NCBI GenBank assembly: GCA_002700385.1
Contig: PADC01000009.1
Span: 2,094 to 66,093 of the forward strand
Length of the DNA stretch: 64,000 nt
Source: Cycloclasticus sp.
GTDB lineage: Bacteria > Pseudomonadota > Gammaproteobacteria > Methylococcales > Cycloclasticaceae
Reading direction: 5' to 3'
Each line of letters begins with the position of its first letter. Position 1 is the stretch's first letter. The notes under the pieces are model-generated. The model was not told the origin of the DNA. It ran no database searches and worked only from the letters and a program-made list of their open reading frames with translations. Below are positions 24,393 to 45,794 of this stretch, one piece after another. Both the position numbers and the translations under genes were made by a program.

Positions 24393-24435
24393 GCCTCAAG
24401 CTAAATCAGAATCATAAACCAAAAAAGGAAAATTT

Positions 24436-24900: not shown

Positions 24901-24906
24901 TTGGCA

Positions 24907-25036: not shown

Positions 25037-25045
25037 GTTGTAAAT

Positions 25046-25426: not shown

Positions 25427-25510
25427 CAAATCGTCCAACCCGACCGTTTTATACGCCGTTTCGCTTCGCTACACTCTGTATAAAACGGCCGGTTAACTCA
25501 AACGTTAGCT
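25422..25510 (+). repeat. attC site 7 (about 89 bp)
   Basis: CATAACAAATCGTCCAACCCGACCGTTTTATAC ... GTATAAAACGGCCGGTTAACTCAAACGTTAGCT. The TAA stop lies in the TAAC box. Confidence 0.8.
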
Positions 25511-25523
25511 GTAGAAAATAAAT

Positions 25524-26048: not shown

Positions 26049-26129
26049 CAAAAAAATCAAGTTCGCCAGCAAAAATACGCTGGCTGGGTCGCGGAAAAAG
26101 CCCCGCGCCCCTTATTTAAAACGTTAAAT
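26044..26129 (+). repeat. attC site 8 (86 bp, homogeneous subfamily)
   Basis: GCTAACAAAAAAATCAAGTTCGCCAGC ... GCTGGCTGGGTCGCGG ... CCGCGCCCCTTATTTAAAACGTTAAAT. Confidence 0.85.
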
Positions 26130-26148
26130 TCACAAGGGATCAATTTTT

Positions 26149-27216: not shown

Positions 27217-27243
27217 ACTGCGCCGGTGTTTGAGGCGTTAGCT
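27186..27243 (+). repeat. attC site 9 (58 bp)
   Basis: TTTAACAAGTCAAAGCACTCGGACGCAG taaa CTGCGCCGGTGTTTGAGGCGTTAGCT. Imperfect palindrome with unpaired bases. Confidence 0.75.
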
Positions 27244-27260
27244 GCATAAAAGGTACTTCG

Positions 27261-27944
27261 ATGAGCTATGATCCTGAGTCGAAAATTATTAATTCTTGGA
27301 AGAAAAATGTAGATCCATGGATTCGTGCTGTACGTGACCATGAAATTGAAACTAGACAGCTCGTAACCAATAAGGCGATTGTTGATGCTATTCTTTATCT
27401 ATCACCAAAAAGTGTGATCGATATTGGGTGTGGTGAAGGATGGCTGGTAAGGGAGTTAGTCGGAAGAGGAGTCAATACACTGGGCATTGATGTAATTCGG
27501 GAGTTCGTAGAATCTGCAAAAAAAGAAAATAGTGGCCGTTATCGTGTGCTAAATTACGATGAATTATCTTATCAAACATTAGGTGAACGATTTGATATGA
27601 TAGTCTGCAATTTCTCATTGTTCGGATCTAAATCCGTTGAAAGTGTCTTTCATTCAACAGCTGAAGTATTAAATCCAAATGGAGTGCTCGTTATTCAAAC
27701 ACTTCACCCAGATAACCACCAAGGAGAAGTGAGTGCATCTGAGGGTTGGGTCGAAGGTTCATGGTCGGGTTTTAGTAGGGAGTTCTGTGACCCGGCACCT
27801 TGGTACTATCGACCTTTGGAGAGCTGGATTAAATTATTCACCGATTCAGGATTCGAAATGCCGAAGATAATTGAACCGGCTAATCCTATAACAGGAAAGC
27901 CAGCATCAATAATTTTTGTAGGAAATCATGTGGCTAACTGTTAG
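27261..27944 (+). CDS. Cassette ORF: class I SAM-dependent methyltransferase
   Basis: 227 aa. SAM motif I VIDIGCGEGWL and post-I acidic residue (LGIDV). Confidence 0.75.
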   Translation: MSYDPESKIINSWKKNVDPWIRAVRDHEIETRQLVTNKAIVDAILYLSPKSVIDIGCGEGWLVRELVGRGVNTLGIDVIREFVESAKKENSGRYRVLNYDELSYQTLGERFDMIVCNFSLFGSKSVESVFHSTAEVLNPNGVLVIQTLHPDNHQGEVSASEGWVEGSWSGFSREFCDPAPWYYRPLESWIKLFTDSGFEMPKIIEPANPITGKPASIIFVGNHVANC

Positions 27945-27968
27945 ACCACTATCGAAGGAGCTCACAAA

Positions 27969-28373
27969 ATGATCAGATTTATAGGCGGATGCCTATGCAA
28001 AGCCGTTCGTTACGAGACGACGGCTGATCCATTGAATCAGAGAGTTTGCCATTGTATGGAATGTCAAAAAGCTATTGGGGCTGCTTTTAATGCTCGTGTA
28101 TTAATGCGTATTGAAGATGTTTCTGTCACAGGGCCAATTAGCACGTTTTACTCATCAGAAACCCTTGAACGAGGCTCTTGCTCGCAATGTGGTTCAAGTA
28201 TTTTTTCTCGACGCTCTTCCGCTGGAGTCATCGGGTTAACGGTTGGCAGTCTTGATGAGCCATCACTTTTTAATCCAGATATGCATTTTTGGGTATCGTC
28301 TAAACAGCCTTGGCTGGAAATCGCCGATGACCTCCCTCAATATCTGGAAGGCCCTCCATATAAAGGTTATTGA
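27969..28373 (+). CDS. Cassette ORF: GFA-family (CENP-V/glutathione-dependent formaldehyde-activating-like) zinc protein
   Basis: 134 aa. Cys pattern GGCLCKAVRY ... CHCMECQK ... CSQCGS typical of the GFA family. Shares a cassette with the methyltransferase (no attC between them). Confidence 0.7.
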   Translation: MIRFIGGCLCKAVRYETTADPLNQRVCHCMECQKAIGAAFNARVLMRIEDVSVTGPISTFYSSETLERGSCSQCGSSIFSRRSSAGVIGLTVGSLDEPSLFNPDMHFWVSSKQPWLEIADDLPQYLEGPPYKGY

Positions 28374-28397
28374 ATTCATGAATTGCCTCAAAAATGA

Positions 28398-28453
28398 CCT
28401 AACAATCAGTTGCAGCGGATTCGTTTCGCTCCCCGCTGAACTTGGCGTTAGGA
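28398..28453 (+). repeat. attC site 10 (56 bp)
   Basis: CCTAACAATCAGTTGCAGCGGATTCG tttcg CTCCCCGCTGAACTTGGCGTTAGGA. Confidence 0.75.
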
Positions 28454-28460
28454 ACTAATC

Positions 28461-29048
28461 ATGGATTCGAGTTTGAAGCTATTTTTTAGCGGGGTGGCAA
28501 TAATTCTTACGTTTGTCGCTTTTGTACCTTATATCCGTTCTATACTTACCGGTGTTACAAGGCCGCATGTGTTTTCATGGGTTATTTGGGGTACAACCAC
28601 CATCATAGTTTTCTTTGCTCAACTTGATGCAAAAGGTGGTATTGGTGCTTGGCCAATTGGCGTTTCTGGTGCCATCACCATATTTATAGCGGTTCTGGCT
28701 TTTCTAAAGCGCTCTGACATTTCAATAACACGGGCTGACTGGTTGTTTTTTTCATCAGCACTCGCTTCAATACCGTTTTGGTATTTTACCTCTGATCCTG
28801 TTTGGGCTGTTATTGTATTGACGGTAGTAGATCTACTAGGGTTTGGCCCAACTATCCGTAAAGCCTACGATTTTCCATATGATGAAAACATACCATTTTT
28901 CTTATTGTTCATGGCAAGAAACGCTTTTGCTTTACTGGCCTTAGAGCACTATTCGGTGGCAACCACTTTATTCCCATTATCGGTTAGCAGTGCCTGTTTA
29001 TTTTTGCTTGTCATGGTTAGTTATAGACGTAAAGTTGTACGCGTCTAA
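28461..29048 (+). CDS. Cassette ORF: multi-pass membrane protein of unknown function
   Basis: 195 aa, six hydrophobic segments. The TAA stop is embedded in GTCTAACAAGG, the left box of a truncated attC. Confidence 0.5.
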   Translation: MDSSLKLFFSGVAIILTFVAFVPYIRSILTGVTRPHVFSWVIWGTTTIIVFFAQLDAKGGIGAWPIGVSGAITIFIAVLAFLKRSDISITRADWLFFSSALASIPFWYFTSDPVWAVIVLTVVDLLGFGPTIRKAYDFPYDENIPFFLLFMARNAFALLALEHYSVATTLFPLSVSSACLFLLVMVSYRRKVVRV

Positions 29049-29090
29049 CAAGGCCAAGCAAAGGGCCAACAAGGAAAGATCTTTCCGAAA
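29044..29090 (+). repeat. Truncated or degenerate terminal attC (left box only)
   Basis: GTCTAACAAGGCC matches the left box of other sites, but no complementary right arm or CGTTA end follows. It contains an unrelated perfect 14-bp palindrome GGAAAGATCTTTCC (29074-29087). Confidence 0.35.
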
Positions 29091-29095
29091 TCAAT

Positions 29096-29163
29096 ACGTT
29101 CTTCCTCTAATCAATCGTTTTAGCTAAATGTATTGGTCGAGCTTTATTTTCTTCGTATACTTG
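29096..29163 (+). repeat. 68-bp direct repeat, copy A (contains a sigma70-like promoter)
   Basis: About 93% identical to 30798-30865. TTGGTC (29134-29139), 17 nt, TATACT (29157-29162). Confidence 0.7.
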
Positions 29164-29358
29164 GCTTGCCCTACTGGTTTTGTATAAAAAGACGATAGAC
29201 AATCAATTAAAAGCTAATGTCATAGTTTTTAGCATTAAGTACAATGTAATAGAACGTTTTAGAAATCAAGCTGGCTGACCCCTCTAGGCATCAATTACTA
29301 TATTAGCATTCAGCTTCAAAAGTACGCCAATAACATTAATATTGCTGGCCGACAGCGC

Positions 29359-30714
29359 ATGCTATCTCAGAAAATAGCAAAGTCCACTTTTATTCTTCGT
29401 TTCTATCGACATCGCGATGCGAATATTGGTGACGGTATCGATGAATTACGCCATGCCGTGGGCTTGTTTGACGAAACATTATCAGCGTTTAGTTATGGAG
29501 GCATTGTCACCAGCGCGTCTGGTAAGAAATTACACATTCGCAAGTTAAGCGATGAAGGTGCCGCCGACATATTATTTAAAGCAAAATTAATATGGCAGCC
29601 TCTACATGATCAATTAAATGATTTTATTGAAAATCGTTCAGAGCAAGAGACAAGTTTGCTTTTGGAAGCACTGGTAAAAGAAAATGTAAAATTACTTGGG
29701 CTGATGAATGAACTAACAAATCACTTAGAGAATAAAGCAAAGAGTAGAACCCATATCCTGCAAGGGCTGCAAACGTTTGTTGTCGTGATGATTTTTTTCT
29801 CCTTTATTTTTGCAACCTTACGGTTGTATCGTCGAGAAAATTATTACAATCGATTAATGGAAAAGACAGCGGACCTTATTATTGGGGTTGATGTAGAAAC
29901 GGCACTGACAACTTTTGTTAGTGCTTCAGTTTTTGAAATGCTTGGCTATGGAGAGCAACACTATATAAAAAAGCCTGTTAGCCTATTATTTGCAAATGAA
30001 TCAAAAGCTGTTTTTTCAGAAATTTTAGAAACAGTTGATAAAACAGGTCGGCTTAGTGCTGAGCGGTGTGAGGTGCAACTACGGAAGAGCGATGGAAGCA
30101 TTTTAACTGCTGATATTATTATGCAAGTAGCCACCAGTGAAGACGGTAAGAGTAGGGAGATTAGTGCTGATATTAGAGATATATCTGAACGAAAAGCGAC
30201 AGAAAACGCACTGATGGAATTAGCACATAAAGACTCATTAACGCAGCTGCCTAATCGGGTGTTATTTTACGAAATGGCAGAACATGCGCTTCAAAAAGCA
30301 AAGCGTTACAAACAATCACTAGCAATCCTATTTATTGATTTAGATGGCTTTAAATCTGTTAATGATAACTTTGGGCATGATATTGGTGATGAGGTACTTA
30401 TTACAACAGCAACTAAACTGAAAGCCTGTTTAAGAGAGTCTGACAACGTTTCACGTGTCGGTGGTGATGAGTTTTTAGTCTTATTGGAAGATGTAAAAAA
30501 GAGTGATGACGTTATTCATGTTGCAAAAGAAATTATCCGCTCAGTATCTGAAATTATTGAAATAAATAATTATAGCTGTCAAGTTGGTGTCAGCATTGGT
30601 GTTGCGCTATATCCAACTCACGCTCTTAATGTTGAAGGGTTAGTAAAAAAAGCTGATGAAGCAATGTACAAAGTAAAAGGCAAAGGGAAGAATAGCGTGC
30701 GCTTTGCTCAATAG
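29359..30714 (+). CDS. Diguanylate cyclase (PilJ/NarX-type sensor remnant - TM - PAS - GGDEF), apparently 5'-truncated
   Basis: RVGGDEFLVLL active site with a RESD I-site 5 residues upstream. The sensor P-box NIAGRQRMLSQKIAK starts before the first ATG. The frame is open only to a TAG at 29260-29262, with no leader or TM1. Confidence 0.75.
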   Translation: MLSQKIAKSTFILRFYRHRDANIGDGIDELRHAVGLFDETLSAFSYGGIVTSASGKKLHIRKLSDEGAADILFKAKLIWQPLHDQLNDFIENRSEQETSLLLEALVKENVKLLGLMNELTNHLENKAKSRTHILQGLQTFVVVMIFFSFIFATLRLYRRENYYNRLMEKTADLIIGVDVETALTTFVSASVFEMLGYGEQHYIKKPVSLLFANESKAVFSEILETVDKTGRLSAERCEVQLRKSDGSILTADIIMQVATSEDGKSREISADIRDISERKATENALMELAHKDSLTQLPNRVLFYEMAEHALQKAKRYKQSLAILFIDLDGFKSVNDNFGHDIGDEVLITTATKLKACLRESDNVSRVGGDEFLVLLEDVKKSDDVIHVAKEIIRSVSEIIEINNYSCQVGVSIGVALYPTHALNVEGLVKKADEAMYKVKGKGKNSVRFAQ

Positions 30715-30797
30715 TTTAATAACGACAAGTATAAATCAAGGGTTCAGCCAGCTTGTTTTTGTATCTTGTTTAACTATAAGCCTATACACCACATTTT

Positions 30798-30865
30798 TAC
30801 GTTCTTCTTCTAATCAATCGTTTTAACTAAATGCATGGGTCGAGCTTTATTTTCTTCGTATACTT
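30798..30865 (+). repeat. 68-bp direct repeat, copy B
   Basis: Matches 29096-29163 with about 5 mismatches. TGGGTC, 17 nt, TATACT (30859-30864), about 137 nt upstream of the peroxidase start. Confidence 0.7.
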
Positions 30866-31001
30866 TCTTTCTGTTAGGCTATCAGTTTGATTTAGACCAC
30901 TATATGTAAGTATGTTTAAAGAAGTGTTATATTCAAACGAAGATTCTATTGGCCTGATTGGGGCTCTTAAAATACGCTGTTAGCAATGCATGGGGATTAG
31001 T

Positions 31002-31490
31002 ATGGAAGCCGATATATACAATTTCACCTTGAGTGATATCGACAATAATGATTTTTCCTTTGAAGCACTTAAAGGAAAGGTGTTACTGATTGTCAATACT
31101 GCCAGTAAATGTGGTTTTACGCCGCAATATGAAGGACTGGAAACGCTTTATAAACAATACAAGTCTCAAGGCTTGGAAATTCTTGGCTTTCCCTGTGATC
31201 AGTTTTTACATCAAGAGCCTGGCAATGAGGCTGAGATAAAATCATTTTGCAGCACGGAATATGCGGTTAGCTTTCCATTATTCAGTAAAGTGGCTGTTAA
31301 TGGAGCTGACACAACGCCTTTATACCGTTACTTAAAAAAGGCTGCACCGGGTGCATTGGGCAGTCAAGCCATTAAATGGAATTTCACTAAGTTTTTAGTG
31401 AACCGGCAAGGGGACGTCGTTAAACGTTATCCTTCTATCAGTAAACCAGAAACAATCGCCACCGATATAGAGGCTTTGCTTTCAAGCTAA
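31002..31490 (+). CDS. Glutathione peroxidase family protein
   Basis: GPx motifs LIVNTASKCGFTPQY (peroxidatic Cys), LGFPCDQF and KWNFTKFLV. An alternative ATG exists at 30990. Confidence 0.85.
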   Translation: MEADIYNFTLSDIDNNDFSFEALKGKVLLIVNTASKCGFTPQYEGLETLYKQYKSQGLEILGFPCDQFLHQEPGNEAEIKSFCSTEYAVSFPLFSKVAVNGADTTPLYRYLKKAAPGALGSQAIKWNFTKFLVNRQGDVVKRYPSISKPETIATDIEALLSS

Positions 31491-31557
31491 CAATGGCCGT
31501 CTTTCTGCGTTGTAAGACAGGTTGTTTCTTAAATCAATGATGGTGGCGTTGTCGGCT

Positions 31558-32733
31558 TTATAGATCACTGCCAAACAGATCACGGCTATAGATTTTATCT
31601 GACACATCAGAAAGTTCTTCATTCAGTCTATTCGCAACAATAACCTCGGCTATTTGTTTGAACTGACTTAGATTTTTCATGACGTTAGAGTTGAAAAATG
31701 TAGGCTCATTGTGAACGGGCTCGTAAATAACCACTTCCACACCTTTTGCTTTTATGCGTTTCATAACACCTTGAATGGCGGATGTGCGAAAGTTGTCTGA
31801 GCCTTCTTTCATCACCAATCGATAAATACCCACGACTTTTGGCTGACGTTTTAATATCTGCGCTGCTATAAAGTCCTTCCGAGTGGTATTGGCATCGACA
31901 ATGGCTTTAATAAGGTTGTTCGGCACGGCGTTATAATTGGCAAGTAATTGTTGCGTATCTTTTGGTAAGCAATAGCCACCGTAACCAAACGACGGGTTAT
32001 TGTAATGCGATCCAATACGCGGGTCTAACCCCACCCCTTTGATAACTTGGCTTGTTTGTAGTTCATGTATTTCGCAATAACTGTCTAGTTCGTTAAAGTA
32101 AGCAACTCGCATGGCTAAGTAGGTGTTTGAAAATAACTTAACGGCTTCTGCTTCGGTTGAATTGGTATATAAAACGGGAATCTCATGCGTTGGTTTTCTT
32201 GCCCCCTCAACCAGTAGGTTAGCAAAACACTCTGCTCTTTCCGATTGTTCGCCCATAATAATTCTGGAGGGGTATAGACAATCGTGTAAGGCGCTCCCTT
32301 CTCTTAAGAATTCCGGGGAGAAAATGATGTTGTTACTTTTTAACCGCTTGGAGAGTTTTTCCGTAAAACCCACCGGCACGGTCGACTTTATAATAATGAT
32401 GGCCTTGGGGTTGTTGCTGATGACATTGTCGGCCACCATTTCAACAGAGTGCGTATCAAAGGCGTTGGTGTCGGCACAGTAGTCGGTGGGCGTTGCTATC
32501 ACAACAAAATCAGCCTGCCGATAATCATCTTCGGAATTTAATTTAGCCTCAAACGTGAGCTTGTCATCGGCTAAAAATTTTTCAATCTCTTCATCCTCAA
32601 TAGGTGATTTCTTCTTTTGTAAGGCCTGAATTTTATCGACTGAAATATCCAAAAGAGTGACTGGATTTTTCTGCGATAGCAACATCGCCATGGAAAGACC
32701 AACGTACCCTGCACCAACGACTGTGATTTGCAT
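31558..32733 (-). CDS. ugd: UDP-glucose 6-dehydrogenase
   Basis: 391 aa. N-terminal [10 protein letters not shown] Rossmann and catalytic Cys context [11 protein letters not shown]. Confidence 0.85.
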
Positions 32734-32753
32734 AATTGATTGCCTTACGGGGC

Positions 32754-33392
32754 TTATATGGATTTTTCCACCACCTTTTCAGGTTCATACCATTCATCCA
32801 TTTCGTCATACATATCCCCTTTTAGCAGGTAATAAGGCGATTTATAGTAGATATAAACATCGTGTATCGGGTCCGTTAAAATTTTAAACGCCCACACTAA
32901 ACCAGATTGCACACCCATAAGGAAAAACAGGTGGGTTGTTCTAAAAATAATCGCTCCAATACCCACCAGCAACCAAATGTAGGCCATGTTCGTTAAGTAC
33001 CCTTTCGCATTTAAAGGCATCTCAAAAAAACCAAACATGCTGGCATTGATTAACAAAATAGCGGGCGACAGAATCCAAACAGCCAATAAAATAATTTTTC
33101 TATGCAGGTTGTAACCTACTTTTACACTTTCTTTGTATTCATGGGTGGCTCTATTCACTTCATCATAAGTTTTTGGTTCAAAAAAGAAATGACCTGTCTG
33201 ACGCAACCCCATGGCCAATAACCACCCCACCATAACGCTAATAACCGGATTAATAAAAAGCATGCCATAGCTGGTTAAAAAGCAAACCGCGCTCAATAAA
33301 TGTAGAAATTGATTGACTCTGTTATGGTGATAAAAACGGTGATCATCCCAACGTTGTTGGCGTAATTCTTGAATAAATGTCATTGTGTTCAT
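32754..33392 (-). CDS. Membrane protein, DUF962/Mpo1-like candidate
   Basis: 212 aa, 4-5 TM helices. N-terminal His/Asn cluster [15 protein letters not shown] resembles the Mpo1-like H..N...H motif. Confidence 0.4.
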
Positions 33393-33536
33393 TAGCCCTT
33401 TAAAATTATGGTGTTAATAGTATGCAACTGCATTGTTTCAATCATGTTTCATTCCAATGACATTTTTAACGCAATGCGCTTTTTTTCATCAATTTTTCTT
33501 CGAATCTTATTTTTAATGCAAAATAAAAGACATCCA

Positions 33537-34403
33537 TTATTCAACTAACCGTAACAATGCTTGCCCCATTGCAATACGCTCGCCCGATTTTATCGTTTCG
33601 CACACCTGATACGATGATGGCGCCAGCAAAATAATAGTAGAACCGTGTTGAAAATACCCCATTTGGTCACCTTTTTGGTAAGAGGCCGAACACGCCAATT
33701 TATTAGCGCCTTTGTATTGCAAATCAAGGGTTTCATCTAAACAGTGAAATTTCATGCTGGCCACGAGAATGGCAGCAACCGGTACAATCACCAAACCTTG
33801 ATCTGTTTTTTTTGTTTTAAGTTGAACAACAGCCCGCTCGTTCTTGCAGTACAGTTTTTCAATTCGTTTTATAGCAATTGGGTTCACATTCCAGGTATCC
33901 CCGGAAATGTAATTGACTTCATTAACATCACAATCAATGGGGGCATGAAATCGATGGTACATACTTGATTTGAGTCTTAACGTAACATAACAGCCGCCTT
34001 CTAAAGGCTTGACCAACTCATGATCGTGCACCAGTTCTTGCAAACTATATGGAAACCCCTTCGCTTGAAACACCCGGCCTTGATTAATGGTTCCAAACGC
34101 ACCGATGATCGCATCACAAGGGCTTGTGACGACTGAAGAGTCTTTTTCAATTGGTCTTAGGCCGTCTTTTAACTCGCGAATAAAACAGGCTTGAAGACTT
34201 TTAAATGACGGTTCTTTCGCCTCTGATAGATCTAAATCATCAGCAAATAGTTTCCAGATTTTAATAGAAAGCCGTGTTAAGTACCGGTTTTCTATTGCGC
34301 TGTACTTCCCCATCAACGTTGTTAAAAATCGCCTTGGAATGCGATTCGTTAACAGAAAGTTCAATTTTTCTGACTGTGTAAAAGACTGAATAAGTTTTGA
34401 CAT
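33537..34403 (-). CDS. Phosphatidylserine decarboxylase-family proenzyme (PSD-like)
   Basis: 288 aa. SSMYHRFHAP (the xxYHRxHxP motif) and C-terminal FQHGSTIILL containing the G-S-T self-cleavage/pyruvoyl site. Confidence 0.75.
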   Translation of the reverse strand: MSKLIQSFTQSEKLNFLLTNRIPRRFLTTLMGKYSAIENRYLTRLSIKIWKLFADDLDLSEAKEPSFKSLQACFIRELKDGLRPIEKDSSVVTSPCDAIIGAFGTINQGRVFQAKGFPYSLQELVHDHELVKPLEGGCYVTLRLKSSMYHRFHAPIDCDVNEVNYISGDTWNVNPIAIKRIEKLYCKNERAVVQLKTKKTDQGLVIVPVAAILVASMKFHCLDETLDLQYKGANKLACSASYQKGDQMGYFQHGSTIILLAPSSYQVCETIKSGERIAMGQALLRLVE

Positions 34404-34436
34404 CTCGATTCAACACCAGACAACGACTAAAAAAGG

Positions 34437-37139
34437 TTAAACAATGGATTTTAATTCATCGACCTTTTTTTCTTGCAAACCCAGGTTCTCCATAAAACGC
34501 ATCATGATGGGCTCGGCTTGGTAAACGTTACTGCGTTTTTTTGCATTCAAACAAAAGGACGCCCGATTAAAGCCGGGAGAGAAATAAGAAATAATCGCTT
34601 CACTCATCTGCTGCTTATCGTCAACAAGAAAACCGTTCAGATTATGTTCGATAATATCTTTAGGCCCTTTACAGTCGTATGCGACCACCGGCATTTGATG
34701 TGAGAACGCTTCGAGAACAACATTACCAAAGGTATCAAACCGTGACGGAAATACTTTTAAATCCAACCCTTTGTACAGTGCTGATAGCCTTTTTTTATCA
34801 ACCCAGCCTACGAATAACGCGTCAGGCAAACAGGCTTCCAGTTCTTCTTTTGCCGGACCAGACCCGGCAATAACCAGCTTAATAGTTGGAATTTTTTGCT
34901 GAACGGTTTTAAAAATATCCGGTAAATCAAAAATTCCTTTTTCCTTACTTAGGCGCCCAGAAAACAGTAAAACGGGTGTGTCATCGTTTGCATCCGGAAA
35001 CAAGCTGCTTTTTTCTATTTTAGGGATGGTTGGGTCGGGCTCATTGATATGATGCGCTGTCATATGTACCCGATCCGCCTCTAGTTGCATATGATGACCT
35101 GTCAGCCAATCTCTGTGTTCGCTATTGAGCACAAAAACACCTTCAAACTGTTTGTAGAAGAACCTCAAAAAGCGCCTTACCCGATCCACTTCGTGATGAT
35201 TTAAATCGGTTGTTTCTTCTATAAATTCTATCCAGTCGGTGTGCATAAAAAAGTAGCTGGGTACATTGAACATATGCTTTATTAGCAAGGCCACCAGTGC
35301 CATTGGGCCTTCTGTAGAGCACACGATTCGATCATAGCCACCCTCATAAAAAATTTTCGCTATTTCTAATACATCAGGCACGCGTAGCAACTGATCACCA
35401 AACTGCCCGACACTGATCGTGGTCAGTGGTCTAACAACATGTAAGTGCGACTCTGGTTCCGCATCAGCATGACAAATTAAATAATCAACCGGTAGATCCA
35501 GGCGTTGGATTTCTTTTAATTTACCTGAGAGAGAATTTGATACGCCGTTTTTATCTCTCAAAGTATCTGTTAAATATAAAGCACGCTTTGGATGGGGATG
35601 CGCACCAATGTATGTAGAGAATTGATTTAAGAAACGACGATTTTGATACAAGAGTCGAGTACTCGCCACCATAGTACCCAGCAAAATAACGCTGACTAAA
35701 ACCGGAAACGACAACTGATCCATCAGCCCGGCTATGTTGATTTCATTTTGATTTTTTTTGCCTTTCTTATGACTAAACAGTCGCGTTAATTGTAAGGGGA
35801 CTTCAAACTTACTGGCTATTTCCGCTGTTGAGAAACCTTCCAATCTATTATCAGCTGTAATTAATTTTTTCTTCTTAATTCGTTTAACAATTAGTTTGTT
35901 TAATTCATTAAAAAGCTCACTGACGGACTCATTAACAACATGAACATATTCTTCGGGTGACTGCCCTTTACTTTGAGCTATTCTTTCAAGATGCTCTATG
36001 CAAAACTTATAGTCTTTCTTTACTTTCCACTTGAGCAGTTTTGACGTTTTTTTCCCTAGTAAGGCATCGTGTGTGTAATTAAAAAAAGTTTGTGTGTATT
36101 TGTGTTTTTTTATTTCTAATAAGAAATTACTAATCGCTAAACAGGCTAATTTATCAGACACTTCACCTCGGTGAAAAAACAAACGCAACAACCCAGGGTC
36201 CTCAATTTTTGTCGCAACCTGTGAAAAATAATCTAAAAGTGCGATATTTAACTTTTGGTTTTCTGTCACTTGCCCGTAAGGTATAACACGCCCTTCCCTG
36301 AGGGCGTCTAATGCTAATTCTGATGCTTTTTTATCTTTTAACTTTGTTGCTAAATCAGGCACATGAAGGTATGAACCGCTTTCGCCAGCAAAAATACCCA
36401 TATGATCGTCTGAGCCACCTGTTAATACTTTTTCCTGATAGGGGTCAACGCCAAAATCTTGCGGGTTCAAGTTATGTTTTTTTGCGTAGGCCATCACTTT
36501 TTCAGCCGTTAAACCTCGAAGCCACTTTAATGTTAAAACACTTTGCCATTGATCTCTTTGCCCGTTGAGCACTTCAAATCTTTGAAACAGAACGGCCAAC
36601 TTTTCGAATAATTCCAGTGTGATCTCATCCTTACGCGTATACAAATATAAAGGATGGGGCAGTATCACCGGAATATTTTGCTCAGTAGCGTAACGTAGGA
36701 ATTGATAAATATCGTTCCTAATTGCATTGAAATGCTCCTCTTGCTCTTGATTAAACCCATAGGCTAATACATGAACAAAAATACTGTATTCTGGGAAATA
36801 ACAGGTAAACTCCGAAGCCACTAATACGTCTTCTCCAGCAGCCTTCAAATCCCAGCATGAGCGCGCATTATTGTGGTTTGTTATCGTCACCACATCGCAA
36901 TCATTCTTTTTTAAACATTTAACGAGGTTTTTTGTTTTCAACCACGTTTCAGGCAACCGCAGTAAACGCCCCCATAATTCATCCGGCACATCACTGTTAT
37001 GGTCGTGACAATGCAAATCAACTTTAAGGCAATTAGCTCTATCAACTAATGCCGCTTGCTGATCTTGATAACGTTTAAACTCGTCTCTTAATTCTTTTCT
37101 AAAGCCTGAGATATTATTCTCTGATAAGAAATCAATCAT
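34437..37139 (-). CDS. Fusion protein: N-terminal PHP-family phosphoesterase + TM segment + C-terminal GT4 glycosyltransferase
   Basis: 900 aa. PHP motifs VDLHCHDHNSD, ITNHNN, HVLAYGF and GGSDDHMG. Hydrophobic LSFPVLVSVILLGTMVA near residue 490. GT4 end VLLFSGRLSKEKG ... FPSRFDTFGNVVLEAFSHQMPVV. Confidence 0.7.
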   Translation of the reverse strand: MIDFLSENNISGFRKELRDEFKRYQDQQAALVDRANCLKVDLHCHDHNSDVPDELWGRLLRLPETWLKTKNLVKCLKKNDCDVVTITNHNNARSCWDLKAAGEDVLVASEFTCYFPEYSIFVHVLAYGFNQEQEEHFNAIRNDIYQFLRYATEQNIPVILPHPLYLYTRKDEITLELFEKLAVLFQRFEVLNGQRDQWQSVLTLKWLRGLTAEKVMAYAKKHNLNPQDFGVDPYQEKVLTGGSDDHMGIFAGESGSYLHVPDLATKLKDKKASELALDALREGRVIPYGQVTENQKLNIALLDYFSQVATKIEDPGLLRLFFHRGEVSDKLACLAISNFLLEIKKHKYTQTFFNYTHDALLGKKTSKLLKWKVKKDYKFCIEHLERIAQSKGQSPEEYVHVVNESVSELFNELNKLIVKRIKKKKLITADNRLEGFSTAEIASKFEVPLQLTRLFSHKKGKKNQNEINIAGLMDQLSFPVLVSVILLGTMVASTRLLYQNRRFLNQFSTYIGAHPHPKRALYLTDTLRDKNGVSNSLSGKLKEIQRLDLPVDYLICHADAEPESHLHVVRPLTTISVGQFGDQLLRVPDVLEIAKIFYEGGYDRIVCSTEGPMALVALLIKHMFNVPSYFFMHTDWIEFIEETTDLNHHEVDRVRRFLRFFYKQFEGVFVLNSEHRDWLTGHHMQLEADRVHMTAHHINEPDPTIPKIEKSSLFPDANDDTPVLLFSGRLSKEKGIFDLPDIFKTVQQKIPTIKLVIAGSGPAKEELEACLPDALFVGWVDKKRLSALYKGLDLKVFPSRFDTFGNVVLEAFSHQMPVVAYDCKGPKDIIEHNLNGFLVDDKQQMSEAIISYFSPGFNRASFCLNAKKRSNVYQAEPIMMRFMENLGLQEKKVDELKSIV

Positions 37140-38841
37140 AATTATCTTCCGTTAGTGGAGTTCTTTTACGGTTTACCAATGCACTGAGCTTTGGGCATTT
37201 GGTTGTTAACATCTCTTTAAGTATTTCTTGCTTAATGGCTTTATTAGTTAACAACGTTTGTTGATACCACCAGCCATCTCGCTGCATTTTTTTAGCGGCT
37301 TCTATTAAACAATTCATGACCTGTTCAAAATCATCATCCGTAAAATTAAAACTCATGATCATTCGGCCACTACCGACCCAACTTAACGATATACCTTCTG
37401 CTTTAAGATAGTATTGATACATCCAGTTATATCGACTTGGCTGTGTATAAAGGACAGTCCAAATAGAGGATAAATGAGCTATTTCGACGGGAACATCAGC
37501 CTGTTTAAAACGTTTATTTAATTCGCTCACTCGTGAATCCCAGCACTCATCTAATTGCTGATATTGCTGTTGGTAGCTCTCTTTTTGTATTTCATTCAAA
37601 AAAACATTCATGCTGGCGAGAACATAAGGGTGTGAGTTAAATGTTCCACGAGCAAAAGACACGTTCGCAGGCGAGTCATTTTTAAATCGTTTCATCAAAG
37701 CATGCGTGCCACACACGACGCCAACCGGAAATCCACCACCCAGCGTTTTTCCGTAGGTGACTAAATCGGCTTGGACATCAAAATATTCCTGGGCCCCTCC
37801 ATACGCCAGTCTGAAACCTGTAAACACCTCATCAAATATCAACACAATAGAGCGCCTGCTACAGACTTCTCGTACTTTTTTAAGCCACACCGTATAGGCT
37901 GTTTTATCAAAATGTGCAGAGCGATCGCTCGCCAACAGCGCGGCATCGCCCGCTGCATCTGCATTTGGGTGCAGGGCTTGTAAGGGATTAATCAATACAC
38001 AAGCAATATCATGACGCGTATTTAAGACGTGTAAGGTTCTTTCACTCATGTCGCTTAAGGTATAGACATCGTTTGTTTTTCGTTGGTTACCAATACCGGG
38101 TTGCACACCATCCCACCAACCATGATAGGCCCCACATAAACGCACCAAATGACTTTTGCCTGTATGATAACGAGCCAGGCGTACTGCTTGCATGACAGCC
38201 TCGGTGCCTGACATATGAAAAGACACTTCGTTCAAACCCGATATCTTCTTTAATTGTTCAACGTTATCTTTAATTAAGGGGTGATAAGGGCCCAAAACTG
38301 GGCCTAAATTTTTTACTTTTTCATAACCGCGTTGCATGCACTCTTTGTAAAAGTCATAACCGAATACATTAACCCCGTACGATCCCGTCAGATCAATACT
38401 CCAATTACCATCCATATCCTGAACCTGAACACCTTTTGAAGCTTCAACCATGGCCCCAACTTTAAGGTGTTCTTTTAAATATTTTCGGTACGGAAAAGGC
38501 ACTCTGTATGCGTTGGTAAAAGCAACATCTGAAATGCTGTTTTCCAACTTATTATAGAAAGCTATCGTTTTCGGGGATTTTTCATTCAGTAGCGTAACGA
38601 GTTGCTCAAAACCTGCTTGACGTTTTTTAATCAGCTCATCACTGGCCCCATCGCTATTAAAAAAACGTTGTGAGTCGTAATCAAATTGAGGAATTAAGCG
38701 CGCAATACGTCGAGACCATTTTGAATGCCCCCTTAAAGAAGGATGTTTAGCTCTTGAAAGTTCTAATCGCCTTTTTACTTTGTGGGCAATAAAAAGAAAG
38801 ACAACTAACCCAGGCAGCCAAAAAAAGATCAATTCATCCAT
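37132..38841 (-). CDS. Membrane-anchored class-III (GSA-aminomutase-like) PLP aminotransferase
   Basis: 569 aa. N-terminal TM helix IFFWLPGLVVFLFIA, class-III segments SGTEAVMQAVRLAR and FDEVFTGFR, PLP-Lys context LVTYGKTLGGGFP. Overlaps the next gene by 8 nt. Confidence 0.7.
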   Translation of the reverse strand: MDELIFFWLPGLVVFLFIAHKVKRRLELSRAKHPSLRGHSKWSRRIARLIPQFDYDSQRFFNSDGASDELIKKRQAGFEQLVTLLNEKSPKTIAFYNKLENSISDVAFTNAYRVPFPYRKYLKEHLKVGAMVEASKGVQVQDMDGNWSIDLTGSYGVNVFGYDFYKECMQRGYEKVKNLGPVLGPYHPLIKDNVEQLKKISGLNEVSFHMSGTEAVMQAVRLARYHTGKSHLVRLCGAYHGWWDGVQPGIGNQRKTNDVYTLSDMSERTLHVLNTRHDIACVLINPLQALHPNADAAGDAALLASDRSAHFDKTAYTVWLKKVREVCSRRSIVLIFDEVFTGFRLAYGGAQEYFDVQADLVTYGKTLGGGFPVGVVCGTHALMKRFKNDSPANVSFARGTFNSHPYVLASMNVFLNEIQKESYQQQYQQLDECWDSRVSELNKRFKQADVPVEIAHLSSIWTVLYTQPSRYNWMYQYYLKAEGISLSWVGSGRMIMSFNFTDDDFEQVMNCLIEAAKKMQRDGWWYQQTLLTNKAIKQEILKEMLTTKCPKLSALVNRKRTPLTEDNYD

Positions 38842-39135
38842 ACCGCATCACATCAAAAAATAATGTGACAAACAATAATCATAAAAAGTGACAGCTAGAT
38901 TGCATTTTAATGACAAACTGAATAAATCATTAAATTCACAGCTTATTTTTATGAACTAACCCCATCGATAACGGGGTTTATTTCTATTTAGAGCATTCCG
39001 CAGTTTTCATGCTTGCTGTTTAACAGCTCATTAATTGAATGATTAGCGTTTAAGAGTGATCGTCCTTGAAATAATTTCTAACATTAGTTAGGTTATAAGA
39101 CCTGATTCTTAACCCCTACTATTTAAGGAAACACC

Positions 39136-40272
39136 ATGGATTTTAGTTTTTCAGAAGAACAGCAGTTATTAAGACAAACCGTTCGGCGGTTTTCTGAAAA
39201 TGAATTAGCCCCGTTGGTAAGAGAAGCTGACGACAATGAGACCTTCCCAAAAGAATTGTTTCCAAAATGGGGAGACATGGGGTTAATCGCAGCACGCTAT
39301 CCGGAAGCTGATGGCGGTGGTGGTTTTAATAAAGTGGCCGATTGCATTATTCGTGAAGAAACCAGCCGAGTTTGTCAGGCCTTTGCCTCCTCTTTATCGG
39401 CACATAGTCATTTGGGTATTTGGCCTATCTGGCGCATTGGCACCGAAGCTCAAAAAGAACAGTACTTTAAACCGGCTTTAGCCGGTCAAAAAGTTTCCTG
39501 TTTTGGACTGAGTGAGCCCGACGGCGGTTCCAATATTCGTGCATTAAAAACCTCGGCTAAAAAAGTAGACGGCGGCTACCTTATTAATGGCAGTAAGCTC
39601 TATATCACCAATGCACCGATGGCCGATTTTATGTTACTGGCTGCTCGTACCGCAGAGGAGCTCAGCGCTAACAGCATCAGTTTATTTATTGTTGACTTGC
39701 CATCAAATAATATTGAAATACAAAAACTCGCTAAAGAAAGTATTCGTGCTTCTGAAACCGGTTTAATATTTATCGACAATTTATTTGTACCTGACGAGGC
39801 CTTATTAGGCGGACAAGAAGGCACTTACCCGATCATTCTTGAGTCACTGACGGAAAATCGTGTCGGTGTTTCAGCAAATTGCTTAGGCATGGCAAGGGCG
39901 GCTTTTGAAGAAGCAGAACGTTATGCGCATGAACGCATCATTTCTAATCAACCCATCGGGAAATTTCAATCCATTGGCCACAAATTAGCAAACATGTCAG
40001 CTGAAATAGAAGCCGCTAAATGGATGATCTACTATGGTGCCTGGTTAACTGATAACGATTCTTTAGATAACGCAATGGCGGCTAAAATTAAACTAACGGC
40101 CAGCGAAATGGCCGTTAGCGTTAGTGAGGATGCCATCCGAATTTTAGGCGGCGCCGGTATTATGCGAGACTACCCAGTCGGCCGTATACATCGAGACACC
40201 CTCCTCTATATCATTGGGGAAGGCACCAGTGAAATTCAACGCAATATTATTGCCCGTTCAATGGGGTTTTAA
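39136..40272 (+). CDS. Acyl-CoA dehydrogenase
   Basis: 378 aa. SEPDGGSNIRALKT and C-terminal IIGEGTSEIQRNIIAR (catalytic Glu context). Confidence 0.85.
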   Translation: MDFSFSEEQQLLRQTVRRFSENELAPLVREADDNETFPKELFPKWGDMGLIAARYPEADGGGGFNKVADCIIREETSRVCQAFASSLSAHSHLGIWPIWRIGTEAQKEQYFKPALAGQKVSCFGLSEPDGGSNIRALKTSAKKVDGGYLINGSKLYITNAPMADFMLLAARTAEELSANSISLFIVDLPSNNIEIQKLAKESIRASETGLIFIDNLFVPDEALLGGQEGTYPIILESLTENRVGVSANCLGMARAAFEEAERYAHERIISNQPIGKFQSIGHKLANMSAEIEAAKWMIYYGAWLTDNDSLDNAMAAKIKLTASEMAVSVSEDAIRILGGAGIMRDYPVGRIHRDTLLYIIGEGTSEIQRNIIARSMGF

Positions 40273-40277
40273 CAACA

Positions 40278-41633
40278 ATGCCCGCACTCAAATCTCTTTT
40301 TGAAGCCACTTCAGTCGCTATTGTTGGGGCTTCTGACGACCCACACAAAATTGGTGGCCGCCCCATTGCTTATATGAAACGCCTGAAATACAAGGGACAA
40401 TTAATACCGATCAACCCTAAAAACGACACTATTCAGGGTTTGCCGGCTAAACGGTCTTTATTGGAGCTGGACGCTCCCGTAGATCTCGCCGTCGTGGCCG
40501 TTCCTGATGCTTTTGTAGAAAAGGTGATTCAAGAAGGGCTTCAGCTGGGTATTAAGAACTTTGTTGTTTTTGCCTCAGGTTATGCTGAAATTAATCAACA
40601 AGGCATCGATAAACAAGCCAAATTAAAGGCCCTGTTTGATGGGACAGATGCCCGTTTATTGGGGCCCAACTGTTTAGGGTTTATCAATACAGAAACTCAA
40701 CTCGTCGCCTCCTTTACTACGGCCATGGAACAACACCCGTTGAAGGTAGGTGGTTTAAGCTTTGCTGGCCATAGTGGCGCGTTGGGTGCTTACTGGCTTG
40801 ATAAAACCATCCGTGCTGATATTGGGGTGAGCAAATGGGTTTCCAGTGGTAACGAAGCGAACCTCTCCTTAGATGAGATTGTCGCTTACTTGGCCACAGA
40901 TTCTCAAACAACCGTCATTTCATTGTATATTGAAGAAATTCGTCATCCTGAAAAATTTGAAAAAGCACTCAAACTGGCCAGAAAAAATAACAAACCCGTG
41001 ATTGCCTTAAAAGGCGGGAAAACAGCAGCAGGAGCGCGCGCAACGGCCGCTCATACCGCATCGTACCCACTCAAGGGCGTTGATTATCAAGCGATTTTCA
41101 AACGTACCGGCGTCATAGAAGTACATTCATTAAGTGAGATGATTCATTGCAGCCAATTCTTTTTAGGTGGCCATAAACTGCTTGGAAATAAGGTGGGCAT
41201 TATTTCGATTTCGGGTGGAGCGGGCGTTATGTTATGCGATCAACTGGAAGAGCATGGCTTAACCATTGAGCCTTTTAGCCACCCACTTCATGACAAGATA
41301 AAGCCCTTATTATCGGACTTTAGTACGGTACAAAATCCAGTTGATTTAACCGCAGCACTGGTAGCACAGCCCAACATGCTGCGTGATACGACCCGTCAAC
41401 TCGTCGACTCTAACGAATTTAATGTGGTGGTTATTTTTATGGGTTTGATGGACAGTGTCGCTCAACAACTCACCAATGGGTTGCTTAAGCTTAAAAACAA
41501 CCCCGCCTGCCCTGTTTTAGTTATTTGGATGGGTGGTCAAGCGGCCTTATTGGCTGATATCGCCAAAAAAGGCATGCTGGTTTTTGAAGAAATTCCCGAT
41601 CTGGTTACTCTTTTATCCAATGTAAAACCTTAA
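40278..41633 (+). CDS. CoA-binding, ADP-forming acyl-CoA synthetase alpha-like protein (no ATP-grasp part)
   Basis: 451 aa. CoA-binding N-terminus SVAIVGASDDPHKIGG, LLGPNCLGFIN, His segment FAGHSGALGA. Confidence 0.6.
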   Translation: MPALKSLFEATSVAIVGASDDPHKIGGRPIAYMKRLKYKGQLIPINPKNDTIQGLPAKRSLLELDAPVDLAVVAVPDAFVEKVIQEGLQLGIKNFVVFASGYAEINQQGIDKQAKLKALFDGTDARLLGPNCLGFINTETQLVASFTTAMEQHPLKVGGLSFAGHSGALGAYWLDKTIRADIGVSKWVSSGNEANLSLDEIVAYLATDSQTTVISLYIEEIRHPEKFEKALKLARKNNKPVIALKGGKTAAGARATAAHTASYPLKGVDYQAIFKRTGVIEVHSLSEMIHCSQFFLGGHKLLGNKVGIISISGGAGVMLCDQLEEHGLTIEPFSHPLHDKIKPLLSDFSTVQNPVDLTAALVAQPNMLRDTTRQLVDSNEFNVVVIFMGLMDSVAQQLTNGLLKLKNNPACPVLVIWMGGQAALLADIAKKGMLVFEEIPDLVTLLSNVKP

Positions 41634-42385
41634 GTTCTTTTTTTGAAAACAGGGTACTCAACCACGCCCTCTGATAAGTTAATCGTAACGGAGACTGGTT
41701 GACCTCCACTTCCATAATTCATCACCGGTTCGGTAACAGAAATAGTAGTCTGTTTTTTTGCAACGGCTAAAATATCGGCCACACAATCAAAGGCTGATAA
41801 TCGTTTCAGTTGAACATGGGTCACTGGCATTAGTTTCACCTCACCTTGTTCATACAGAGATAAAATCTCTTTGGGTAAGGCCCAACATGATGAGTCGGTT
41901 TCTTTATTGTCGTGCATAATGATCTGATCCGCTGAAGCCGCTGCAAGAAAAAAGCGCGTATTAAATCGTTTTGGTGCACCTGCCGGCGTTAGCCAGTGGT
42001 CATAAAACACCACTTCATCTAAATTGATGGATACTCGATGCTCTCTTAACACATCCTCAAAACTGATCTCGCCTTCGTGAAGTTTATGGCGCAACAGGTC
42101 ATCTATTTGAAGTCCATTTTGATTTGCCGAGGCTAGAATCCCTGCTTCTTCCAAGGTTTCTCGAACGGCCGCCACTTTATTTGCTTGTAGCAAAGAATCG
42201 ATCTCTTCTTTGGTAAGGCAAAACTCCGTTTCGCCTAGTTGCTTATCGTGTTCATCCACTGCTCCGCCTGGAAAAACATAAGCACCTGCTGCAAAACCCG
42301 ATGTTTCAACACGACGCAGCATACACACTTCCATGCCATTATCTGAATCGCGTAACAATATTAAGGCGGCTGCATCTTTGATCAT
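41630..42385 (-). CDS. NUDIX hydrolase
   Basis: 251 aa. Nudix-box core GGAVDE ... AAVRETLEEAGI. Its 3' end overlaps the convergent upstream gene by 4 nt. Confidence 0.7.
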   Translation of the reverse strand: MIKDAAALILLRDSDNGMEVCMLRRVETSGFAAGAYVFPGGAVDEHDKQLGETEFCLTKEEIDSLLQANKVAAVRETLEEAGILASANQNGLQIDDLLRHKLHEGEISFEDVLREHRVSINLDEVVFYDHWLTPAGAPKRFNTRFFLAAASADQIIMHDNKETDSSCWALPKEILSLYEQGEVKLMPVTHVQLKRLSAFDCVADILAVAKKQTTISVTEPVMNYGSGGQPVSVTINLSEGVVEYPVFKKRT

Positions 42386-42474
42386 TTTTATCCTTTTTTA
42401 AACCTCAACAACTCGCTTTGCCAGCTGATTAAGATCATAATATAACAAGTGTTTGGTAGATTATAGGAGTTTAG

Positions 42475-43617: not shown

Positions 43618-43668
43618 ATTAGCCAACAAACCTTTACAATAAAATTTTTTTGAAGACACACATGACTT

Positions 43669-44526: not shown

Positions 44527-44535
44527 TCGCCCACT

Positions 44536-45741: not shown

Positions 45742-45794
45742 CCCTCATCTACGCACAATCTGGTCAAAAAATAATAAAAATTTGGGAGAGAACT

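Follow-up and report, generated by a model that had tools for sequence, protein, structure and literature searches.

We analysed a stretch of 64,000 nucleotides from Cycloclasticus sp. (contig PADC01000009.1, positions 2,094 to 66,093; this whole stretch is called the window in the following) with regard to a string of five genes on its minus strand. In the order of transcription, these encode a class-III pyridoxal phosphate (PLP) enzyme (AT3), a fusion of a PHP phosphoesterase with a GT4 glycosyltransferase (FUS), a phosphatidylserine-decarboxylase-family proenzyme (PSD), an Mpo1-like membrane protein (MPO) and a UDP-glucose 6-dehydrogenase-type protein (ugd). A preliminary description, made from the sequence alone, had read the five genes as an envelope-lipid operon functionally analogous to the PlcP/Agt system of phosphate-stress lipid remodelling. 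We find that the first four genes form a module that is conserved across phyla, is often preceded by Pho-box-like sites and in some loci adjoins genes for phosphorus-free lipids. At the level of the pathway we thus regard the locus, with moderate confidence, as a PhoB-controlled membrane-lipid remodelling module.

The module is defined by its gene order. One genome per species was scanned, which resulted in 80 loci, and their flanks were compared by tblastn and by clustering of about 1,000 flanking open reading frames (ORFs). The co-directional order AT3-FUS-PSD-MPO is found in about 63 of the 80 loci, where each protein is 57-69% identical to its copy in the window. A gene order shared by that many independent loci is far above chance. 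The loci come from Zetaproteobacteria, Kordiimonadaceae, Rhodospirillales, Flavobacteriales, Binatia, Margulisiibacteriota and many Gammaproteobacteria (Marinobacter, Paraglaciecola, Colwellia, Psychromonas, Psychrosphaera, Bermanella, Nevskia, Haliea and others), i.e., Alphaproteobacteria and Bacteroidota are among the groups that carry the four-gene order. Clustering of the flanking ORFs from all 80 loci revealed no conserved gene beyond the four. The fusion protein itself has more than 1,300 homologues; the best 120 are all full-length and show 61-96% identity, and the closest (96%) is labelled Cycloclasticus sp.

Next to gene order, the regions upstream of AT3 are informative. Tandem Pho boxes follow the consensus CTGTCAT-N4-CTGTCAT. 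The array of half-sites upstream of AT3 in the window (Table 1) has the architecture of such tandem boxes and is considered a predicted site; a -10-like hexamer TATGAT (about 38878-38883) lies within the array region. The pattern TGTCA-N6-TGYMA-N6-TGTCA is unique in the window at 0.06 expected matches, where the pattern was picked after the site had been seen. When the strict consensus is used with at most 3 mismatches, the window shows eight matches (4.8 expected). The best of them, CGGTCATTAAACTGTTAT with 2 mismatches, is intergenic at 2687-2704 (minus strand) upstream of an aldehyde dehydrogenase gene (1213-2655) and may be due to chance.

Most of the weight for Pho boxes is carried by the statistics over the loci, with other intergenic upstream regions from the same loci as controls. 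A Pho box of at least 10/14 on the coding strand within 130 nt upstream of AT3 is present in 20 of 44 loci compared to 27 of 286 control regions (Fisher p=4e-8). In an unbiased k-mer test, TGTCA is the top 5-mer (34/45 vs. 48/286, p=7e-15), and TGTCAT and TGTCAC are enriched as well. When similar upstream sequences are merged, a site remains in 12 of the 24 resulting independent groups, usually 25-100 nt ahead of the start codon. Pho-box-like sites are also observed for solo fusion genes (L042 and L072 with 11/14, L069 and L070 with 12/14; numbers refer to the loci of our scan).

Ornithine lipids are classic phosphorus-free substitutes that are induced by phosphate limitation, and Ols genes adjoin the module or the fusion gene in 10 loci. 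That is, an OlsF equivalog (816 bits vs. a cut-off of 620) is the neighbour in seven loci (L004, L005, L007, L008, L011, L016, L074), and OlsB and OlsA are part of the same gene string in three Marinobacter loci (L035:6229-15850, L050, L062:7770-14266). The Marinobacter extension is a co-directional string of eight genes with a zinc carboxypeptidase-like M14 protein and an α/β hydrolase between MPO and OlsB/OlsA. The fusion gene is found without its three partners in eight loci. Both L062 and L016 combine the fusion with Ols genes and are devoid of AT3, PSD and MPO, where L062 shows the M14/hydrolase/OlsB/OlsA tail; in L042, a 5'-nucleotidase-like gene follows the fusion. The window has no Ols homologue, and about 55 of 66 loci are without a nearby Ols gene. 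Pho boxes and genes for non-phosphorus lipids are likewise found together around plcP (PMC4796936). The phosphate-stress analogy of the preliminary description thus gains independent support from the Pho-box enrichment, from the Ols adjacency and from the recurrent nucleotide-sugar 6-dehydrogenase discussed below.

The PlcP/Agt system (Phaeobacter, SAR11, Agrobacterium; PMC4796936) is the known system to which the module is to be compared. Both feature a phosphoesterase together with a GT4-family glycosyltransferase, predicted upstream Pho boxes and neighbours for phosphorus-free lipids. Furthermore, Agt makes monoglycosyldiacylglycerol (MGDG) and glucuronosyl-diacylglycerol (GADG) (PMC4796936), and the latter suits the recurrent ugd linkage of the module. 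In contrast to PlcP/Agt, the phosphoesterase of the module is of the PHP fold, both activities are fused in one protein of 900 aa, and three conserved partners without PlcP/Agt counterpart are added, i.e., a PSD paralog, an AMT-like PLP enzyme and the Mpo1-like protein; the activity of the module is a prediction. Among the five proteins, Pfam and NCBIfam identify neither a PlcP homologue nor another phosphoesterase family beyond the PHP fold. Because of the missing PlcP homologue, the PHP fold, the fusion and the three extra proteins, we place the module outside the PlcP/Agt system despite the functional resemblance. The module is genuine and uncharacterised; it is probably Pho-regulated and serves as a predicted, non-homologous counterpart of PlcP/Agt in lipid remodelling.

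We now turn to the individual proteins, starting with the fusion. Its N-terminal part shows the motifs DLHCH (41-45), ITNHNN (86-91), HVLAYG (123-128) and GSDDH (242-246). The putative metal ligands D41, H43, H45, D46, H89, E110, H123, H162, D244 and H246 show no or almost no variation among 25 close homologues. Sequence searches are of little help here: no Pfam match (E≤10; PF02811 included) is found for the N-terminal 516 residues, a PDB sequence search (phmmer) with the N-terminal 313-516 residues is without match, and an hhalign comparison between the family profile and E. coli RNase AM is not significant (probability 0.1), with motifs that nonetheless align in register. Distant relatives of the fusion match PF02811 only below threshold and PHP_C marginally. 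The AlphaFold model of residues 1-516 (predicted local distance difference test, pLDDT, 76.5) provides a clearer picture. Here, the best Foldseek match is RNase AM (7ug9, E=1.7e-6), followed by BAD_1165 (3o0f), V. cholerae RNase AM (9etk), the pAp phosphatase CV1693 (2yb1) and the PHP domain of PolC (3f2b). Since both fold and ligand set match, we accept the domain as PHP, although sequence profiles stay below threshold; the modelled fold confirms this assignment. Within the PHP fold, the model is structurally nearest to the TrpH/RNase AM branch, which is known to act on nucleotides, and not to CpsB.

Residues ~295-470 of the fusion form a helical region specific to the close family, which is followed by a hydrophobic helix (Table 1). 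This helix is a candidate membrane anchor or membrane-interacting helix. It may be membrane-associated rather than a true span, since transmembrane grade (hydropathy ≥1.6) is not uniform in the family but reached in 49 of 76 close homologues. The C-terminal part is a GT4 domain according to Pfam matches in residues 530-870 (PF00534 102 bits, PF13692 99, PF13439 33) and a model of pLDDT 89. Its top Foldseek matches are BshA, GlgM, MshA, PimB', PimA and sucrose-phosphate synthase (SPS) with TM-scores of 0.70-0.75; by sequence, BshA also ranks first among the characterised enzymes in PDB and NCBIfam. Consequently, from the PHP-transmembrane-GT4 architecture proposed before, the two catalytic domains hold while the transmembrane segment holds in part.

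A second PHP::GT4 family of about 780-840 aa was identified by a full-library HMMER search with the N-terminal 470 residues (proteins P0187-P0389). Only the PHP part matches, with about 34% identity, and in the PHP ligand columns conservation over the two families is at least 90%. The second family is found in anaerobic lineages (Coriobacteriia, Spirochaetia, KSB1, Marinimicrobia, Lentisphaerae, Latescibacterota and others); its members are uncharacterised and lack strong hydrophobic segments. On three long contigs (L081-L083), the respective genes stand alone and share no informative neighbour. Because this distant family stands alone, the fusion looks like a self-sufficient two-step unit, to which the other three genes would be a clade-specific elaboration.

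AT3 matches PF00202 with 125 bits. The PLP lysine K365 (37747-37749) and D337, the contact to the pyridine nitrogen, are invariant in 60 homologues. The N-terminal membrane anchor that had been noted for this protein is recovered at residues 4-22 (hydropathy 2.09) and kept in 50 of the 60 homologues. The best solved relative is the aminotransferase (AMT) domain of the mycosubtilin synthase MycA (6kfm; E=4e-54, 188 bits, residues 116-524), while structures of glutamate-1-semialdehyde 2,1-aminomutase (GSAM) score about 111 bits. AT3 is thus predicted to be of the AMT type, i.e., related to the β-ketoacyl aminotransferase domain of MycA, which goes beyond the preliminary description. We also tried an assignment as HemL (GSAM) and rejected it, since TIGR00713 scores 171 bits vs. 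a cut-off of 527 and MycA AMT outscores all GSAM structures. AT3 is below the cut-off of every NCBIfam equivalog. The MycA AMT domain aminates a carrier-bound β-ketoacyl chain. AT3 has in common with it the class-III PLP fold with conserved Lys and Asp, but is free-standing and membrane-anchored, carries about 100 extra N-terminal and about 45 extra C-terminal residues, and shows neither carrier protein nor polyketide synthase or nonribosomal peptide synthetase context.

PSD matches PF02666 (189 bits) and passes TIGR00163 (161 bits vs. cut-off 112) as the only such model, i.e., it is below all species-level equivalog cut-offs. It belongs to the same family as E. coli Psd (6l06/7cnw; PMC7952604) with about 31% identity (6l06, E=1e-27) and also aligns to its N-terminal region; the match to the tryptophan decarboxylase PsiD is weak (E=2e-4). 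As had been described, the GST self-cleavage site is intact (residues 254-256; 33636-33644), and all catalytic residues are kept, i.e., Asp90, His144, His147 and G253-S254-T255 (E. coli numbering) are invariant in the alignment with E. coli Psd. Different from the latter, the phosphate-contacting Tyr137 is replaced by Arg throughout the family and Ser166 by Asn. According to the structural study of E. coli Psd, Arg is found in place of Tyr137 in 15% of the PSD family (PMC7952604). Both exchanges are compatible with an anionic headgroup and would be no proof of phosphatidylserine as substrate. We infer that this PSD paralog, encoded in a presumed stress module, is not the housekeeping enzyme.

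For the fourth protein, the assignment as DUF962/Mpo1-like is weak but consistent across the family. The window copy scores 18.8 bits against PF06127 and is thus below the gathering score of 24, while 25 of 25 homologues match at E≤0.1 (best 2.9e-6). The match covers the N-terminal ~60 residues and about 60 of 95 profile positions. The earlier naming is therefore sustained at the level of the family but not by the window protein's own score. PDB sequence and profile searches with this protein yielded no relative. It features four to five hydrophobic segments and the invariant histidines H18, H22, H31, H68 and H177, which would fit a membrane metallo-enzyme. Yeast Mpo1 is an Fe(II)-dependent 2-hydroxy fatty acid dioxygenase, which the module protein resembles by its polytopic nature, its many invariant histidines and the family-wide weak profile match. 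Given that the window protein is below threshold and the profile matched in part, enzymatic equivalence to yeast Mpo1/DUF962 is putative.

The fifth gene differs from the others in its distribution. Its product shows three UDPG_MGDP_dh domains and 333 bits for TIGR03026 (cut-off 190), while the E. coli-type Ugd model PRK15057 is matched with 608 bits, i.e., below its equivalog cut-off of 757. Membership in the nucleotide-sugar dehydrogenase family is therefore certain, and UDP-glucose is the probable sugar. A nucleotide-sugar 6-dehydrogenase adjoins MPO in about 8 of 66 loci (the window, L010, L013, L019, L020, L025, L066, L080). The association spans at least five lineages, with the ugd-type neighbour being on the opposite strand in some of these loci. 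Because of both the low number and the varying strand, we place ugd outside the conserved core. From the five-gene set proposed before, the four-gene core is thus retained, while ugd is a recurrent, lineage-specific accessory of the module.

All components are members of known superfamilies but form divergent, unnamed subfamilies, since equivalog cut-offs are missed except for the broad PSD and nucleotide-sugar dehydrogenase models. Databases label the proteins merely as 'glycosyltransferase', 'aminotransferase', 'phosphatidylserine decarboxylase' or 'hypothetical'. Neither Pfam nor NCBIfam provides a specific family for the module components, and we found no description of a PHP::GT4 fusion or of the four-gene module in the literature. 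This is in accordance with the earlier view that the gene set is uncharacterised.

Coordinates of genes, domains and the predicted regulatory site are summarized in Table 1. The ORF list agrees with the five co-directional genes at 31558-38841 given before. AT3 and FUS overlap by 8 nt, and the gaps are 33 nt (FUS/PSD), 144 nt (PSD/MPO) and 20 nt (MPO/ugd). The PSD/MPO gap (33393-33536) is thus far longer than the other junctions. Metatranscriptome contigs (≥95% identity) cover all five genes. Three junctions are bridged by contigs from RNA-seq runs, namely MPO/ugd (32528-32782), PSD/MPO (33398-33594) and FUS/PSD (33900-34494). These contigs are consistent with co-transcription, including ugd, in the organism of the window.

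Table 1: Features of the locus in window coordinates
Feature	Position	Strand	Size or residues	Basis
Class-III PLP enzyme (AT3), AMT/GSAM-like subgroup	37132-38841	minus	569 aa	ORF
PHP phosphoesterase::helical linker::hydrophobic helix::GT4 fusion (FUS)	34437-37139	minus	900 aa	ORF
Phosphatidylserine-decarboxylase-family proenzyme (PSD)	33537-34403	minus	288 aa	ORF
Mpo1-like/DUF962-related polytopic membrane protein (MPO)	32754-33392	minus	212 aa	ORF
UDP-glucose 6-dehydrogenase-type nucleotide-sugar dehydrogenase (ugd)	31558-32733	minus	391 aa	ORF
PHP domain of FUS	36270-37028	minus	residues ~38-290	Foldseek on AlphaFold model and invariant ligand columns
Hydrophobic helix of FUS between PHP/linker and GT4	35649-35714	minus	residues ~476-497	hydropathy 1.96 (476-494); AlphaFold helix 469-495
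GT4 domain of FUS (GT-B, retaining-type family)	34470-35582	minus	residues ~520-890	Pfam and model
Pho-box-like array upstream of AT3 (predicted)	38866-38915	minus		half-sites TGTCA/TGCAA/TGTCA/TGATT/TGTCA, 11-bp spacing

Taken together, these properties suggest a mechanism, for which we infer substrates, step order and product as follows. The fusion protein would act at the cytoplasmic face of the inner membrane and combine two steps in one enzyme. First, its PHP domain would act on a substrate derived from glycerophospholipids, i.e., on phosphatidate or on an intact phospholipid, and strip it of its phosphate or phospho-headgroup, which would yield diacylglycerol. The latter would then be glycosylated by the GT4 domain using a UDP-sugar. 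Where ugd is attached, the donor would probably be UDP-glucuronate; such a uronic-acid donor would fit the recurrence of the dehydrogenase in about eight loci from at least five lineages and GADG as a product of Agt. The result would be a phosphorus-free glycolipid of the MGDG or GADG type. In support of this scheme, the full set of PHP metal ligands is kept in both fusion families, the GT4 domain is confirmed, the catalytic residues of PSD are kept, and AT3 is membrane-anchored and nearest to an aminotransferase domain that works on fatty-acyl substrates.

The three partner proteins would handle the headgroup of an aminophospholipid. Here, the PSD paralog would convert phosphatidylserine or a close analogue to the ethanolamine form. 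AT3 would act on a carbonyl or amine that is lipid-borne or close to the membrane, for which two options are conceivable. Either it would transaminate a keto or aldehyde intermediate to an amino headgroup, or it would eliminate ethanolamine such that the phosphate can leave, in which case the PHP domain would release phosphate from the phosphatidate that is left. Some class-III PLP enzymes are known to eliminate phosphate from phosphoethanolamine. The histidine-rich Mpo1-like protein may contribute an Fe-dependent oxidation step. Alternatively, AT3 and the Mpo1-like oxygenase might install an amino group on the new headgroup. Headgroup removal by PSD, AT3 and PHP is a chemically coherent proposal, with partner roles that are presumed.

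Combining these steps would result in a new route, in which phosphatidylserine would be converted to phosphatidylethanolamine, its ethanolamine removed or converted by the PLP enzyme, inorganic phosphate released by PHP to leave diacylglycerol, and a phosphorus-free (glucuronosyl) glycolipid formed by GT4, whereupon the PLP enzyme and the Mpo1-like oxygenase may produce a new class of amino-bearing zwitterionic glycolipids. We put this full sequence forward tentatively and with low confidence. That the module makes a new lipid class or uses a new chemistry of headgroup removal has a low but realistic probability.

Several points weigh against lipid remodelling by the module. The functional claims rest on sequence, fold, synteny and motif statistics. 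A simple glycosylation of diacylglycerol would need neither AT3 nor PSD nor the Mpo1-like protein, and the roles given to these partners are guesses. The nearest structural relatives of the PHP domain (RNase AM, pAp phosphatase) use nucleotides or RNA instead of lipids, and the central helix is below transmembrane grade in part of the close family and absent in the distant fusions. Furthermore, the Foldseek results for GT4 do not separate soluble or phosphorylated acceptors (BshA, MshA, GlgM, SPS) from lipid acceptors (PimA, PimB'). Concerning regulation, the array of the window reaches 10/14 against the strict consensus and is thus missed when at most 3 mismatches are allowed, and all Pho-box calls are consensus matches, the enrichment of which may be inflated by composition and shared ancestry despite the controls. 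Finally, the RNA contigs are without strand information, while the longer contigs and two runs are of the whole-genome-amplification type and may contain DNA.

Since the GT4 structure is equally close to both acceptor classes, it cannot choose between a phosphatase-first order on lipids and the inverse order. The latter would follow the style of SPS and sucrose-phosphate phosphatase or of MshA/MshA2, i.e., GT4 would first transfer the sugar to an acceptor that carries a phosphate (either a small metabolite or the headgroup of a phospholipid) and PHP would dephosphorylate the product, making the step irreversible. AT3, PSD and the Mpo1-like protein would build or modify the aglycone, and the pathway may end in a soluble glycoside, for instance a compatible solute or the precursor of a thiol-type cofactor, instead of a bulk membrane lipid. 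We consider this main alternative possible but unlikely. It is in line with the Foldseek neighbours MshA (inositol-1-phosphate), GlgM (glucose-1-phosphate), sucrose-phosphate synthases and BshA (malate) and with BshA being the best sequence match. Moreover, pathways of this kind typically pair a GT4 with a phosphatase, the distant PHP::GT4 family is without strong transmembrane segment or lipid-gene context, and there are PSD-family enzymes for free amino acids, where PsiD was matched weakly. On the other hand, three of the four module proteins have membrane anchors or polytopic segments, such that the membrane association claimed earlier stands, and both Pho-box enrichment and OlsF/OlsBA adjacency point to phosphorus-sparing lipid chemistry. 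PSD is much nearer to the lipid enzyme than to PsiD, as given by the E-values above, and its alignment with E. coli Psd includes the N-terminal region of the latter. The Foldseek scores of PimA and PimB' are about equal to those of the GT4s with soluble acceptors. The known pathways that couple GT4 to a dedicated phosphatase (sucrose-phosphate synthase/phosphatase, MshA/MshA2 of mycothiol synthesis, GlgM) share the GT4 structure and the coupling, but use phosphatases of HAD or other types instead of PHP, have soluble acceptors, and are without PSD, AMT or Mpo1 partner, membrane anchor, and Pho or Ols context.

The Ols neighbours themselves suggest another explanation, in which the module would decorate ornithine or other amino-acid lipids from OlsF/OlsBA, for instance by glycosylation, by transamination at a side-chain amine or an acyl β-carbon, or by α-oxidation of hydroxy-acyl chains, to yield a phosphorus-free aminolipid and not a glycoglycerolipid. 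OlsF or OlsB/OlsA are often co-directional with the module where they are adjacent, including the eight-gene string of Marinobacter, and AT3 resembles a β-ketoacyl aminotransferase domain. Mpo1 acts on 2-hydroxy fatty acids according to its Pfam description, and ornithine lipids carry hydroxy-acyl chains. Still, we deem such a tailoring improbable. Most loci as well as the window lack a nearby Ols gene, and the PHP phosphoesterase would be left without a role. In addition, a pyruvoyl PSD needs a free α-amino acid, which is absent from N-acylated aminolipids (PMC7952604), and the Ols adjacency may reflect a shared Pho regulon as in plcP neighbourhoods (PMC4796936).

The list of activities also resembles the pathway to 4-amino-4-deoxy-L-arabinose (Ugd, decarboxylase, aminotransferase, glycosyltransferase and a phosphate step), and ugd is adjacent in the window. 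In an Arn-like modification of lipopolysaccharide (LPS), these enzymes would make an amino-sugar for lipid A or core, while PHP would remove a phosphate of lipid A or of the carrier. This is highly improbable given that no homologue of ArnA, ArnB, ArnC or ArnT is found among the Pfam/NCBIfam matches of the five proteins or as a conserved neighbour. Furthermore, the aminotransferase is of class III and not of the DegT type, the decarboxylase belongs to the pyruvoyl PSDs, whose substrates are α-amino acids, ugd is missing from most loci, and no conserved genes for LPS, flippase or undecaprenyl-phosphate are nearby.

Synthesis of capsule, O-antigen or exopolysaccharide on soluble sugar phosphates, which the generic annotation 'glycosyltransferase involved in cell wall biosynthesis' and the PHP-family CpsB phosphatases of capsule loci known from literature might suggest and which the preliminary description had named as the context that would speak against its lipid reading, is of negligible likelihood, since a conserved polysaccharide context (such as Wzx/Wzy, Wza/Wzc, an initiating transferase or additional glycosyltransferases) is absent from all 80 loci, the four module genes alone are conserved, and the PHP fold resembles the TrpH/RNase AM type more closely than CpsB. 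One paper on Legionella that came up in the literature deals with an unrelated O-antigen cluster.

Exchanging phospholipids for phosphorus-free lipids is one of the major ways in which marine bacteria adapt to scarce phosphate, and plcP, agt, ols and bta are known markers to read phosphate adaptation from metagenomes. If the module performs Pho-regulated lipid remodelling, it would be a new phosphorus-stress marker, whose carriers include hydrocarbon degraders (Cycloclasticus, Marinobacter), sea-ice and cold-water Alteromonadales and iron-oxidising Zetaproteobacteria. It would also provide a first function for PHP::GT4 fusions, including the large stand-alone family in anaerobes, as well as a role for bacterial Mpo1-like proteins and free-standing AMT-type aminotransferases, and a new lipid class might emerge. 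If even the new route proposed above holds, many marine Gamma- and Zetaproteobacteria would own a phosphorus-sparing pathway without homology to PlcP/Agt, the product of which would be a lipid still absent from lipidomic libraries. Since several cultured carriers exist, the prediction is directly testable.

Concerning the genomic context, the G+C content is 0.35-0.41 across 22000-40000 of the window compared to 0.42-0.47 in the flanks. Given the low G+C content and a module that is about 60% identical across phyla, this region may be a horizontally acquired island. Beside the module, the low-G+C stretch holds small unannotated ORFs, a methyltransferase (27261-27944), a PAS-GGDEF diguanylate cyclase (29359-30714) and a glutathione peroxidase (30990-31490).

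For the ORFs at 26149-27216, 28461-29048, 41630-42385 and 44536-45741 (195-401 aa among them), no Pfam/NCBIfam match was found at the thresholds used. The rest of the window (1-21000, 39136-56911) is dominated by acyl-CoA metabolism with at least six acyl-CoA dehydrogenases. These regions also encode a carboxyltransferase together with a biotin carboxylase (14776-18402), a flavin monooxygenase of the Baeyer-Villiger type (2845-4545), an aldehyde dehydrogenase, an acetyl-CoA hydrolase/transferase, a subunit of an ADP-forming acetate-CoA ligase and an AMP-dependent ligase. This gene content fits a hydrocarbon-degrading, Cycloclasticus-like organism. Finally, the ORF at 57772-59211 matches Porin_O_P (phosphate-selective porin family, E=1e-9) and is thus another possibly phosphate-related gene of the window.

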